Below are positions 13,846 to 30,299 of a stretch of 64,000 nucleotides of DNA, piece by piece. The stretch is from a virus (lineage: Duplodnaviria; Caudoviricetes), in IMG/VR virus record IMGVR_UViG_3300033498_000048, positions 192,001 through 256,000 of that record; one strand, 5' to 3'. Each line of letters opens with the position of its first letter. Position 1 is the first letter of the stretch. The notes beneath the pieces were generated by a model. The model had not been told where the DNA came from. It saw only the letters and a list, made by a program, of their open reading frames with translations, and searched no databases. A program made the translations under genes and the position numbers.

Positions 13846-14934
13846 TTATGTACCATCGCTGAAGAATCCAAATATTAAATGATTGGATTCTTCATTGTTT
13901 AAATAATTTTCACGCATTGACATTCTAGTGTCTAAATTTGTTAAATCGTAAAAATAGTCTTGACTTGTTAGCCATGCAAATATAACTAAGGTCATTACAA
14001 TATCATCGTGTTTACCACGTTCAGCTTCATAGGAAGTTCCCTTCTTAATAAACATAGTCAACTCTGTAATTGTATTGTAATCTACTAATTCTAAGGTATC
14101 ACTTTCAATTAGATTTTTTAATGTACTACATCCTATTAATTTGGTCTTTTTAGTTTGTCTTATTCCAACAATACTTGAATCTGTTATTATCGTATCTCCC
14201 TGCTTAGATTTTGATGTTAGCATATTTTCATATTCATATTCATAATACAATATGTTTGCTACTATTGTTCCAACACTATTGGATTCAATTACAATATAAG
14301 CATCATTATACTTTTTCGAGATGTGATATGATTCATCTGCAAACATAAAAGGAACAATTTGATTGTTCCTATAAACAGCAACTTGTTTATATCGCTTCTC
14401 AGTGACATCAATTATTGATATTACAGAATAGTCTTTGCCCATTCCCTCAGCAACATCAATAATTGAAATGTACGAATTACCTTGAATTGGATGCTCATAA
14501 ATGTATAAAGAATCGTTGATAACTTCTAATGGTTGTTTGTGGGTTAATTGTTGTAATTTCTTACCTGATATTAATGTACCAGAACTTCCAAGGAAATTAC
14601 AATTGTGACTGAGTATTCCATTAGTGTAATAAACACTATCTGTTCCAACATCAATTAAATCATACATTTCAATTGGAACATCTATCAGCTCTTTGTCAAT
14701 AACAAAACAACCATCCATATTAGTATCAACAAAATCACCTATAACCAACTCAATTGCCGTTTTTATTCCATCAATGGTAACTAATGGATGATTATCAGAA
14801 CATACCAAGTTAGTTCCATTAGAAAAACTTAACTTGATTTGCCTATCTTTGTTAATTTTATTAATCCCAATAAACGGTTCAAACCCATTAGGTGTTAAAA
14901 CTGTTAATTGTAAGTTGTTTGTTAATGTTGTCAT
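13846..14934 (-). CDS. gp17: Terminase large subunit piece 3: split-intein C-fragment 2 plus nuclease domain
   Basis: After ...TNGILSHN the sequence reads CNFLGSSGTLIS, IIDVAEGMGKDYS, IESNSVG and HDDIVMTL, all T4-like gp17 C-terminal motifs. Confidence 0.95.
   Translation of the reverse strand: MTTLTNNLQLTVLTPNGFEPFIGINKINKDRQIKLSFSNGTNLVCSDNHPLVTIDGIKTAIELVIGDFVDTNMDGCFVIDKELIDVPIEMYDLIDVGTDSVYYTNGILSHNCNFLGSSGTLISGKKLQQLTHKQPLEVINDSLYIYEHPIQGNSYISIIDVAEGMGKDYSVISIIDVTEKRYKQVAVYRNNQIVPFMFADESYHISKKYNDAYIVIESNSVGTIVANILYYEYEYENMLTSKSKQGDTIITDSSIVGIRQTKKTKLIGCSTLKNLIESDTLELVDYNTITELTMFIKKGTSYEAERGKHDDIVMTLVIFAWLTSQDYFYDLTNLDTRMSMRENYLNNEESNHLIFGFFSDGT
14602..14934 (-). mobile_element. Split intein C-fragment IntC2 (111 aa)
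   Basis: Begins with Met and has no block A. VLTPNGF; block B VCSDNHP; block F MYDLIDV; block G SHN with +1 Cys. Same layout as atypically split TerL inteins (AceL-TerL type). Confidence 0.92.
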
Positions 14935-14949
14935 TATTATTCCATATCG

Positions 14950-16299
14950 TTATATGACATTGCAATTCAATCTATTATTTGTTGGATATACTGAAACCTT
15001 ATCAATAACATGACTATCAATTATTATTGAGTGTATTGTTCTTCCTATAAACGATTGTTTGTTTAGCCTTTCAACATATATTTTAACCCCGTTTTGCGAC
15101 TCGACTGATTTCTTCAATCTGTGTTTTAGTGGACTCTTTAATACCATGCAATCACTCGTAATTCCATTATACAATTCAATTATTTTATTTAATATTTCAC
15201 ATCCAATTATACTTTTACCAACAACTATTGGAATAGTTAAATTTGAATTAAATGCTAAACTAATAGCAGCATCATATATTAAATTGTTTGATATTTCAAA
15301 ATCGCGAGTACAATATTCTGGAGTTTGACTATTGTTAATTAATTGATATAAATCTCCAAATGTAATATTGTTACAAATTGAATTTTCGGATTTAATTATA
15401 ACTTCGGTATTAGCGGAACAACAATCATATTCTTGTGAGAAATTTTGTGTCCCAATATTACTTTCGGTTGTTTGTCTCCACGCTTCATCGCGTTCTGGGT
15501 GGTCATACCACAAATATTTACTCCTAACAAACTCATTTCTACCCTGTTCAGATTCAATCCACAGTTTGTAAAACAAATTCATACCTTTTGGAGTAGACGT
15601 GATTATCACCTTAGTTGTTTTTCCAGATGATATTACTGGGTAGGTTGATTCAAAAAATTCAACATCATTGTCAATATGGGCGAACTCATCACAGTAGAGT
15701 GTTCCAACTGATTTACCCCTGATGGAACTTGATGATGTTGCTGCACTAAAACACTTTGAACCATTCGCCAGTGTGATACTTGTTTTGTTCCAAGTTACAA
15801 CTCCAGGTTTTAAAAACCAAGGCAACTCCTCAAACATCTTACATAAACGGTCTAATATTTCTGCGGAAGTAGCTCCCTTATTTGCTAATATTCCAATCGA
15901 CTTATTACTATTGAATATTGCCTCATATAACAAATAGGCTGCTGCTGTTGTTGTATTGTGACTTACTATTCCATTTGAATAATATTGGTGTGATTCAGAA
16001 TCAACTTCAACATCATACATATTCTCGTATTCAGTTGTATTAGTAATTGATATTACTTTTGATGTACCGTTAATAGTTTTAATCACATCACCAATTATTA
16101 AGTCTTTAACAAATACTTCGGAATTGTATTCTGACATTACTATATGCGTATCTGCACACTCTAATTTTGCTCCACAATCAAACTCAACAACCCATTTTTC
16201 ATACGGAACAGTTTTCATTACATTTGTACAATTTACCCAACCTTCTGGGGTAAATACTTCCCAATCTGTAATTGGAATAACCCTCTCAAACTTCCTCAT
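14950..16299 (-). CDS. gp17: Terminase large subunit piece 2: IntC1, ATPase core, IntN2 and a degenerate ATPase-like tail
   Basis: SHN|TTTAAAYLL...ILANKGATSAEIL...SIRGKSVGTLYCDEFAHI...IITSTPKGMNLFYKLW...QEYD|CCSANTEVII. Confidence 0.95.
   Translation of the reverse strand: MRKFERVIPITDWEVFTPEGWVNCTNVMKTVPYEKWVVEFDCGAKLECADTHIVMSEYNSEVFVKDLIIGDVIKTINGTSKVISITNTTEYENMYDVEVDSESHQYYSNGIVSHNTTTAAAYLLYEAIFNSNKSIGILANKGATSAEILDRLCKMFEELPWFLKPGVVTWNKTSITLANGSKCFSAATSSSSIRGKSVGTLYCDEFAHIDNDVEFFESTYPVISSGKTTKVIITSTPKGMNLFYKLWIESEQGRNEFVRSKYLWYDHPERDEAWRQTTESNIGTQNFSQEYDCCSANTEVIIKSENSICNNITFGDLYQLINNSQTPEYCTRDFEISNNLIYDAAISLAFNSNLTIPIVVGKSIIGCEILNKIIELYNGITSDCMVLKSPLKHRLKKSVESQNGVKIYVERLNKQSFIGRTIHSIIIDSHVIDKVSVYPTNNRLNCNVI
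15313..15423 (-). mobile_element. Split intein N-fragment IntN2 (about 30-37 aa)
   Basis: CCSANTEVIIK...ITFGDLYQL fits block A (C1xxxxT6xV8) and the I..LY signature of short IntN pieces. The C-terminal boundary is approximate. Confidence 0.85.
15955..16299 (-). mobile_element. Split intein C-fragment IntC1 (115 aa)
   Basis: VFTPEGW; block B LECADTH; block F MYDVEV; block G GIVSHN with +1 Thr. No block A. Confidence 0.92.
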
Positions 16300-29097: not shown

Positions 29098-30205
29098 AGA
29101 ATTGCTTAATGTTTCTAATAAGTATAATTTAGCCTCGGCTGCAAAGCACATTAAGCTTGATGTAATTAAAGCAACACAAGCATTTCCAGATAAAATAACG
29201 TTATCACAAAGAATACGAGCTATTGCTGACAATAATGCTTGTATTTGTCCATATTGTGGAAAGGTACACGGTAATCCATATCGAGATTATTGTAATCAAC
29301 AATGTTACACAAAACATACAACAGCTAATGCTATATCCAACAAAATCAATAAACTAATTCAAGCAGGTGAAATAAAATATGCTGGTTTAGTTGAAGGTGT
29401 CGATTATCTTGTTTGTCAAGTTTGTGGATGTAAGTGTCAAGATGTAGGTAAACATAGTAAAATCCATGGATTATCTGCTACAGAATATAAACTAAAATTT
29501 GGCATTAAGAAAACTAAAGCTGATATTATTTGTAAATATGGAGCAGATAATCCAGGTTATCAACATGGTGGGAAGTTTTCTAAATGGTCAAAGAATTACA
29601 TCCACGGTTATGACGAAGTTGCTCATAAAGAGTTTAAAGAAAAACAGTCTAAATGTAGGACAAACAACCCAACCAATCATTTTTCTAGGGCGCACTATTC
29701 TAGCGATGCTGAATATAGTAAAGCTCAATCCAGAGGATTAGATTATTTTATTAGAAAATATGGCGATGCTGGAATTGATAAATGGCATAATAAAAATATG
29801 AATATGCAGGTATCTCAACCAATTATGTCTTTTAAATCTTTGTGGACAAATAGAAGTGAGGTTTTAGGACATTTCTACATCCTTAAAATATCAACTGATA
29901 AAATAAAAATCGGAATAACAACAAGAAAGGTGGTGAAACGGTATTGTAATAGTGTTGATGTGATAGTTGATTTAGAATGTACAATATCTATAGCATTTAT
30001 GATTGAACAATTAACAAAACGACAATTTATAAACTTTTTAATTGATAAAAATGATGCTGTAACTGGATTTGGGTGGACAGAAACATTTAACATTAATTGT
30101 TTAGAACCGATGTTGAAATCAGTCGATACTTATGTGAATAATACTGATATGTTATCGACTGATTTCAAATCAACATTTAAGTTGAAATACCCTGACCGTT
30201 TTTAA
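29072..30205 (+). CDS. Putative free-standing homing endonuclease (zinc fingers plus C-terminal GIY-YIG/T5orf172-like nuclease)
   Basis: CPYCG..YCNQQC; CQVCG..HSKIHG; GLDYFIRKYG; C-terminal FYILK...KIGITTR....RY. Confidence 0.65.
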   Translation: MTELLAQCKELLNVSNKYNLASAAKHIKLDVIKATQAFPDKITLSQRIRAIADNNACICPYCGKVHGNPYRDYCNQQCYTKHTTANAISNKINKLIQAGEIKYAGLVEGVDYLVCQVCGCKCQDVGKHSKIHGLSATEYKLKFGIKKTKADIICKYGADNPGYQHGGKFSKWSKNYIHGYDEVAHKEFKEKQSKCRTNNPTNHFSRAHYSSDAEYSKAQSRGLDYFIRKYGDAGIDKWHNKNMNMQVSQPIMSFKSLWTNRSEVLGHFYILKISTDKIKIGITTRKVVKRYCNSVDVIVDLECTISIAFMIEQLTKRQFINFLIDKNDAVTGFGWTETFNINCLEPMLKSVDTYVNNTDMLSTDFKSTFKLKYPDRF

Positions 30206-30299
30206 TACTTAGATTGAACAAATCTACAATTGTAATTTCCTCAATGGTATTTGTAGATTTGTTCCTGATTGTTAGTTTTGTTTCTGGTGACACACATTT
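30177..30299 (-). CDS. gp17: Terminase piece 1, exon 2: Walker A Lys plus split intein N-fragment IntN1 (39 aa); absent from the ORF track
   Basis: AAA TGT GTG TCA CCA GAA ACA...ACT TAA = K|CVSPETKLTIRNKSTNTIEEITIVDLFNLSIKNGQGIST*. Confidence 0.9.
   Translation of the reverse strand, partial: KCVSPETKLTIRNKSTNTIEEITIVDLFNLSIKNGQGIST
30216..30264. terminator. 14-bp perfect hairpin inside the IntN1 coding sequence
   Basis: gaacaaatctacaa-N21-ttgtagatttgttc, starting 11 nt after the stop of the plus-strand endonuclease gene. Confidence 0.55.

Follow-up and report, generated by a model that had tools for sequence, protein, structure and literature searches.

Probable assembly of a phage large terminase subunit from three polypeptides by way of a group I intron and two atypically split inteins

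The subject of this study is the large terminase subunit (TerL) of an uncultured phage known from the IMG/VR virus record IMGVR_UViG_3300033498_000048 (305,782 bp), of which we analysed bases 192001-256000, a stretch of 64,000 nucleotides with a G+C content of ~31% that is called the window below and to which coordinates refer where no other contig is named. The TerL gene lies in three pieces, every part of it on the minus strand of the phage genome, and we consider it probable that the complete protein is built from three polypeptides by way of one group I intron and two split inteins, each divided into a short N-terminal (IntN) and a long C-terminal (IntC) fragment. The record has direct terminal repeats and an estimated completeness of 100%; the DNA probably came from a microbial-mat metagenome, and relatives of the phage are present in freshwater and lake samples.

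Piece 1 begins with an exon of 105 codons (30610..30924, from ATG 30924) that encodes the TerL N-extein and ends in LLSRQMG, the first part of the Walker A motif. It is followed by the group I intron of 310 nucleotides (30300..30609) and by a second exon (30177..30299) made up of a Lys codon (30299..30297), which completes the Walker A GK, of the 39-residue IntN1 (30296..30180; Cys1, CVSPETKL) and of a stop codon. Piece 2 (449 residues, 16299..14950), whose IntC half of intein 1 is ~14 kb away from IntN1, starts with IntC1 (115 residues, 15955..16299; block B CADTH, block F YDVEVDSESHQYYSNG, block G IVSHN and Thr+1 in the context SHN/TTT) and continues with the middle extein of 177 residues (15424..15954), which holds the ATPase core, opens with TTTAAAY just after Walker A, contains the Walker B motif LYCDEF and ends in FSQEYD. 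Behind it come IntN2 (15313..15423; Cys1, CCSANTEV) and, in frame with IntN2, a tail of 120 residues (14953..15312) that is a degenerate TerL ATPase segment reaching from Walker A to Walker B. The TAA that closes piece 2 (14952..14950) and a spacer of 15 nucleotides containing GGA (together 14935..14952) precede the ATG of piece 3, and the open reading frames (ORFs) of pieces 2 and 3 share the same frame. Piece 3 (362 residues, 14934..13846) consists of IntC2 (111 residues, 14602..14934; block B CSDNH, block F YDLIDVGTDSVYYTNG, block G ILSHN and Cys+1 in the context SHN/CNFLGSS) and of the C-extein, the TerL nuclease domain (251 residues and a stop, 13846..14601), whose first residues are CNFLGSSGTLISG.

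The four intein parts had been placed at these positions by a first-pass annotation of the same DNA, and the coordinates, the Pfam matches, the intein matches and the colinear relatives described below all bear this placement out. That annotation took IntN2 for a fragment of 30-37 residues, which fits the intein-homologous part (~31-36 residues) but not the ORF, which runs on for another 120 codons to the TAA. Since the tail is in frame, the native IntN2 fragment has 157 residues and is not a short peptide, and the view that both N-fragments are short and synthesisable is thus only half right.

The core matches the Pfam family Terminase_6N (E 2.7e-23) and the C-extein Terminase_6C (E 1.4e-16), and the genome contains no second match to either family, which makes this its sole TerL. 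Because the complete genome has no other TerL, the phage depends on the fragmented one, and this is our main argument that the intron and both inteins work. In the uninterrupted TerLs of 16 related viral contigs, N-extein, core and nuclease follow each other back to back in the same order; the Walker A junction aligns with them without a gap, and at the second junction at most a few residues are left unaligned. Identity to the TerLs of these relatives is 41-50% for the N-extein up to the junction, 42-57% for the core and 42-49% for the nuclease. The predicted spliced TerL has 106 + 177 + 251 = 534 residues.

In the scenario we propose, the transcript of piece 1 would splice out its own group I intron, joining the Walker A Gly and Lys codons to give a precursor of 145 residues (106 of N-extein and 39 of IntN1), while pieces 2 and 3 would be translated from their adjacent ORFs. 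IntN1 would then dock into the nearly complete IntC1 and a class 1 reaction, with Cys1, the block B His, the His-Asn end and Thr+1, would yield the junction SRQMGK-TT; IntN2 would dock into IntC2 (Cys1, Cys+1) and join ...QEYD to CNFLGSS..., the product being a colinear T4-type TerL. That both splicing steps take place, and that each IntN favours its own IntC strongly enough to make the full-length protein the main product, is what we infer from the sequences.

Piece 1 and its group I intron

The frame of IntN1 extends only 8 sense codons upstream, the N-extein being set apart by the intron, and the unspliced frame of exon 1 continues into GMNLPM and then meets a stop. When the local region was searched with permissive filters, it matched the Rfam group I intron model RF00028 with 56.1 bits against a gathering score of 50 (E 1.6e-13); a default-filter Rfam scan of the whole window returned no match and missed the intron. 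The fold has a z-score of -3.6, the P1 helix AUGGGU/GCCCAU places a U.G pair at the 5' splice site, and the G at 30300 precedes AAA UGU. Joining of the exons is in frame and gives ...SRQMG-K-C..., with the Walker A GK complete directly before the intein. A score above the threshold, the U.G pair in P1, a terminal G and in-frame exons are thus all found together, as expected of a group I intron.

The two closest homologues of the N-extein (P0128 and P0129, 87% and 79% identical) are interrupted at the same Gly codon, and one of these two, L051, carries the same intron (52.4 bits), the aligned region of intron and IntN1 exon being ~89% identical between the two phages, with a compensatory change from A-U to G-C in the 3' hairpin of the intron. 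The IntN exon of L051 is open, encodes 38 residues and is 67% identical over 39 aligned codons including the Lys codon. More distant N-pieces (P0130-P0135) have no intron, and their reading frames run ...RQMGK/C... straight into an IntN of 33-48 residues. Over the same 39 codons, the number of synonymous substitutions per site (dS) between the IntN1 exon and L051 is ~0.47, and the synonymous sites of the neighbouring N-extein exon are saturated. The low dS of the IntN1 exon together with the ~89% identity of the region could reflect a recent exchange of an intron and IntN cassette, or else constraint at the nucleotide level.

The features of piece 1 bear on whether covalent joining takes place at all. 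If the intron stayed unspliced or the inteins were dead, TerL might be a non-covalent assembly of fragments, as in phage Aeh1, where NrdA is split; tails derived from mobile elements can bring fragmented phage enzymes together (PMC3045599), and the pseudo-ATPase tail on IntN2 could be such an interaction domain. However, all splicing residues are intact in both inteins, IntN1 is open in relatives, the intron lies above the Rfam gathering threshold and is conserved with a compensatory change, and without RNA splicing the Walker A lysine would be lost and the N-extein would end in junk. We therefore regard non-covalent assembly as very improbable and keep to covalent joining through the intron and the two inteins.

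On the plus strand, a convergent ORF of 377 residues (29072..30205) shares 29 nucleotides with the 3' end of the IntN1 exon. It has a MucR-type zinc finger with a weak match to the Pfam family ROS_MUCR and an HGGKFS motif, and this N-terminal zinc-finger/HGGKFS module matches (E 3e-12) an ORF of the relative L049 that has a restriction-endonuclease-like (MTES_1575) end and lies just upstream of the TerL middle piece. No nuclease domain was identified in the 377-residue ORF itself. It may be a free-standing gene of the homing-endonuclease-like kind, linked to the displacement of piece 1.

The two inteins and the tail behind IntN2

Intein 2 is, judging by its sequence, a member of the known family of the AceL-TerL, GOS-TerL and Cat inteins. 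IntC2 matches the engineered consensus CatC (PDB 6DSL_B) over residues 6-113 with E 1.4e-19, its Cys+1 stands in the same context as in the AceL-TerL/GOS-TerL family, and in a tree of 74 IntC domains it groups with the split inteins that other phages carry at the same place (site b); the N-parts of site-b inteins, contiguous and split alike, can be aligned with IntN2. When the short peptides of IntN1 and IntN2 were searched against PDB sequences, no useful match came up. We also folded a read-through chain of IntN2, tail and IntC2, with the TAA taken as Gln, on an alignment of contiguous and split alleles from which P0049 was left out, because in two trials MAFFT misaligned its tail against IntC. 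The per-residue confidence (pLDDT) was 82-91 for IntN2 and 93-98 for IntC2, and the ordered parts superposed on the structure 8ubs with Z 20.0 (root-mean-square deviation 1.6 A over 134 residues) and on VidaL (6vgv) with Z 19.5. Since the model superposes on whole inteins, IntN2 is predicted to take its canonical place and to complete the HINT fold with IntC2. Intein 2 thus has the Cys1, block B His, block F, His-Asn end, Cys+1 and modelled HINT fold of the AceL/GOS/Cat type, and its break falls between blocks A and B, with separate ORFs on either side (stop at 14952..14950, ATG at 14934).

The same model could be read in another way. Since the two ORFs share their frame with one TAA and five sense codons between them, the tail sits exactly at the split site as an insertion domain would, and the read-through chain folds into a complete HINT domain, intein 2 might be one contiguous intein with an inserted domain, in which the in-frame TAA is read through, is recent or is a sequencing lesion, so that pieces 2 and 3 form one polypeptide. 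A shared frame, however, has a chance of one in three; piece 3 has its own ATG with GGA 7 nucleotides upstream, the halves are separate genes in relatives, often with a whole endonuclease gene between them, and in the closest relative the ORF of IntN-b (the IntN at site b) and tail ends at a stop and then a terminator hairpin. We give the contiguous form very little credence and treat intein 2 as split.

Intein 1 resembles the AceL/GOS/Cat type functionally, having a short IntN and a long IntC, and its sequence assigns it to a different allele lineage: it is inserted at SRQMGK/TTT in Walker A, has Thr+1 and falls in a separate clade. IntC1 is only distantly like solved inteins (VidaL, E 2.9e-6; CatC, E 1.3e-5). 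In the tree, all 44 Walker-A-site (site-a) inteins, split and contiguous, form one clade (support 100/99) on a branch of 1.24 changes per column, apart from the inteins of sites b and x. Intein 1 thus belongs to a separate and large Walker-A-site clade that is apparently undescribed, and by the sequence evidence the two inteins of this TerL come from long-separated lineages.

The tail carried by IntN2 deserves separate consideration. Aligned to the phage's own core between the end of Walker A and Walker B, it is 26% identical (BLASTP, E 2e-7), and against an alignment of 18 TerL cores hhalign gives a probability of 94.5% (E 8e-8); the DE of Walker B has become DS in the tail. In a close relative (P0049/P0051) a tail 48-50% identical stands behind its IntN-b, where core-b is 86% identical; that tail is ~60 residues longer and is followed by a terminator, and the TerL there carries an additional split before Walker B. 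Between the two phages the tail has a nonsynonymous rate (dN) of 0.45 and a dS of 1.34 and has stayed open even though IntN-b is only 33% identical, and in both its first residue is Cys. The close relative keeps the intron and the IntN1 exon open as well as the tail. An exhaustive profile search of 1.84 billion cluster representatives found a homologue of the tail in P0049 only, apart from six tiny proteins that match the extra C-terminal part of P0049 and not the tail studied here; a word-indexed search with the tail returned the query itself only, and Pfam and PHROGs gave no match for it. A recent duplication of the phage's own core was considered as the origin of the tail and was rejected, the tail being only 26% identical to that core and equally or more similar (up to 32%) to the cores of other phages.

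The tail sits at the split site, a position that in other alleles holds a homing endonuclease, either fused or free-standing, and from its sequence it looks like a maintained, lineage-specific domain in that position. On splicing, the tail would leave together with IntN2.

Recurrence of the layout and specificity of pairing

The 120 best database clusters found with piece 2 were sorted by architecture. About half (61 of 120) consist of IntC-a, core and nuclease, that is, of a two-piece TerL split at Walker A, and 25 are middle pieces of 318-356 residues with IntC-a, core and a short IntN-b. Contiguous inteins account for further clusters, with 8 at site b, 8 just before Walker B and 7 at Walker A. 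In another 6 (P0004, P0014, P0016, P0020, P0024 and P0059) IntN-b is in frame with a GIY-YIG endonuclease, sometimes with NUMOD3, and C-terminal cargo on a short IntN is therefore common at the site-b split. In the relatives L045-L050 the middle piece and the C-terminal piece are neighbours, or are parted only by endonuclease genes, sometimes by a DUF723/DUF559 (Vsr-like) gene, and they lie within head and tail modules of the normal T4-like kind. An N-extein piece beside them was not seen in L045-L050; in one case it is found elsewhere on the same 178-kb contig as the middle piece. The complete 381-kb phage G001 has its TerL in four pieces at ~38, 195, 198 and 328 kb (L044 952-1896 on the minus strand, L040 1480-2190, L042 1033-1920 and L043 1495-2601), with three short-IntN inteins at Walker A, just before Walker B and at QEx/C. 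In its N-piece a whole contiguous mini-intein stands directly before the terminal IntN, which places two inteins in tandem at one site.

Small ORFs lie upstream of several of these middle pieces. Those of L047 (5531-6004) and L048 (5534-6004), of 156-157 residues and directly upstream, resemble Hint domains only faintly, lack a recognisable extein and match no Pfam family. Those of L045 (9556-9996) and L050 (1-453) encode proteins of 146-150 residues in which a Walker A like that of TerL (GRQTGKT in L050) is combined with YIDE/YIDN, which resembles Walker B; they belong to no Pfam family. As candidate relatives of the tail or as N-pieces, the small ORFs upstream of the L045-L050 middle pieces were set aside for want of significant similarity.

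The arrangement of IntC, extein and IntN within piece 2 makes mispairing consequential. In cyclisation by split-intein circular ligation (SICLOPPS), the IntC stands at the N-terminus of the chain and the IntN at the C-terminus. The first-pass annotation had reasoned that pairing of IntN1 with IntC2 would delete the ATPase core and that pairing of IntN2 with IntC1 could cyclise it, and the topology bears this reasoning out, with concatenation of the core as another product of the second pairing. From the sequences we consider that cognate joining must dominate in vivo, because the gene is essential and single-copy and the layout recurs. Whether the two inteins are strongly orthogonal, as that annotation expected, is a further question, on which the sequences let us lean toward orthogonality by a little more than an even balance.

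The divergence of the two inteins speaks for it. They are 31% identical, and 22 of the 37 predicted IntN-contact positions differ. Charges change in the IntN as well as in the IntC: residues 7 and 13 are K/K in IntN1 and E/E in IntN2, and R2, R6, K35, E47 and E92 of IntC1 are T, N, Q, V and Y in IntC2. The complex prediction for IntC1 (with 5 extein residues) and K+IntN1 gave an interface score (ipSAE) of 0.73 against 0.02 for the best control, a mark reached by 51 of 78 solved complexes and by 2 of 108 mismatched pairs, which supports binding of IntC1 to IntN1 in the model; a cousin and a true partner could not be told apart by this means.

Several observations weigh against the assembly as proposed, or against clean pairing within it. 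The locus was not found in any RNA run searched. Block B of IntC1 has Ala where the canonical TxxH motif has Thr, a substitution that is invariant in 50 aligned relatives and through the whole site-a clade. Close cousins pass the complex predictor just as easily as genuine partners do. The predicted contact positions are more alike between IntC1 and IntC2 (15 of 37 identical, 41%) than the remaining positions are (19 of 71, 27%), IntN1 and IntN2 share the frame C.S..T...I...IT..DL(F/Y).L and are of almost equal length, and both IntC1 and IntC2 are strongly acidic (net charge -10 and -9). Lastly, in an AlphaFold 2 model of piece 2 the hairpin and helix of IntN2 are still formed with a pLDDT of 65-78, so that docking of IntN2 onto the non-cognate IntC1 in cis is conceivable; this model returns per-residue confidence only, and the gap to the 82-91 of the read-through model is suggestive without being evidence of orthogonality.

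With these observations in mind, the two inteins might cross-react appreciably, the dead by-products (an N-extein-nuclease fusion and a cyclised or concatenated core) being tolerated since few terminase molecules are needed per capsid, or since cognate pairing is merely faster. The higher conservation of the contact positions (15/37 vs 19/71) and the common frame of the two IntNs, whose hairpins differ in length by one residue, speak for such a view, and the IntN-b of phages P0089 and P0092 is 45% identical to IntN1. Among studied inteins, the small IN of two other inteins trans-splices with the Ssp DnaX IC (PMC3443213), the GOS and AceL IntNs are interchangeable (PMC11766414), and in a 24 x 24 matrix cross-talk occurred mostly among atypically split pairs (PMC7090010). 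On the other side, the gene is essential and single-copy, the IntC-core-IntN topology occurs in 25 clusters, three such inteins are present in one relative, the divergence between the two lineages is deep, and the differing contacts include several changes of charge (K to E at IntN 7 and 13, E47 and E92 of IntC1 to V and Y). We take appreciable cross-reaction to be possible but rather unlikely, and continue with preferential cognate pairing.

A bolder extension holds that the two inteins, or the three of G001, are sets of truly orthogonal short-IntN inteins that act on one protein within one cell, and that the tail is active, in that it could, as a docking or steric module, steer IntN2 to piece 3 or keep IntN2 off the IntC1 in cis, or, in the relative with a piece that contains just half of the ATPase fold, could stand in for the other half before splicing. 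We consider this combination distinctly doubtful.

Known systems and neighbouring genes

AceL-TerL, GOS-TerL and Cat are atypically split inteins of the phage large terminase (PMC2677866; PMC11766414; PDB 6DSL), and intein 2 shares with them the host protein, a short IntN, an IntC of more than 100 residues that includes block B, and Cys+1 followed by (E/N)F(L/F)G. In those systems, however, TerL is in two pieces and the IntN of 25-37 residues is free, whereas here IntN2 is fused to the 120-residue pseudo-ATPase tail and a second atypically split intein is present in the same protein. In the fractured-gene arrangement the two halves of a split intein flank a homing endonuclease gene that stands free (PMC2677866); just such an arrangement is found at site b of L047-L049, with their DUF723/DUF559 Vsr-like genes, and in the phage's own gp43. 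Intein 2 differs in having only the 15-nucleotide spacer and no endonuclease gene between its halves, and intein 1 in that its halves are ~14 kb from each other and its N half also carries a group I intron. The split NrdA of Aeh1, with its mobE insertion tails (PMC3045599), is similar in that an essential phage gene in fragments has additional sequence where it is broken, which selection maintains, but there the tails replace splicing, whereas the tail here is on an intein fragment that would be excised.

Engineered orthogonal split-intein ligation (PMC7090010) uses the same middle-fragment design, with an IntC at the N-terminus and an IntN at the C-terminus, and there too each IntN must choose its own IntC; the present system differs in being natural and in that both inteins are of the short-IntN type, which showed the most cross-talk in the engineered sets (PMC7090010). 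Full-text searches of the literature returned single atypically split TerL inteins but no protein that is naturally rebuilt by two or more trans-splicing steps. The Walker-A clade of atypically split inteins, the trans-assembly of one protein by several inteins and the pseudo-ATPase cargo are thus apparently new, and the layout apparently undescribed.

VidaL has a host protein other than TerL. It is (PDB 6VGV) the best solved-structure match of IntC1 and likewise combines a short IntN and a long IntC in phage-like metagenomic DNA; intein 1 differs from it in being weakly similar, in its position in the TerL Walker A loop, in Thr+1 and in the block B Ala for Thr.

Split inteins with a short IntN are prized for semisynthesis and labelling, as peptide synthesis gives access to their N fragment; natural examples that have been characterised are few, and engineered ones tend to cross-react. 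If a protein is put together from three or four polypeptides by two or three inteins of this kind, those inteins are a ready-made candidate set for traceless one-pot ligation of several fragments, and at the same time they are nature's own experiment on the way in which a fragment of ~30 residues encodes specificity. Trans-splicing would here be combined with RNA splicing one codon from the site of the intein, which lies in the Walker A loop of a gene that is essential. In the many related loci the same inteins occur split, contiguous, fused to an endonuclease or flanked by one, and this bears on how genes become fractured.

A megablast search of GenBank phages with the locus returned no match. 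Occurrences of the T4 late-promoter motif TATAAATA number 12 where ~18.6 are expected, which is no enrichment, and we make no claim on co-expression. Directly upstream of piece 2 and overlapping it, in the place where relatives would have the terminase N-piece, lies an operon on the minus strand (16286-19375) that encodes a Tet/JBP dioxygenase (E 3.3e-25), an amino acid:DNA transferase (E 1.2e-22) and a P-loop nucleotide kinase (E 2.1e-7) and looks like a DNA hypermodification module.

Outside the window, at G000:C1 164630-174115 of its own genome, the phage has three more inteins. The gp43 DNA polymerase is broken by a canonical split intein, apparently with Ser1 and Ser+1, with a free-standing endonuclease-like gene of 370 residues between the halves, and UvsX and the gp44 clamp-loader contain one contiguous mini-intein each, which brings the total for this phage to five inteins, three of them split.

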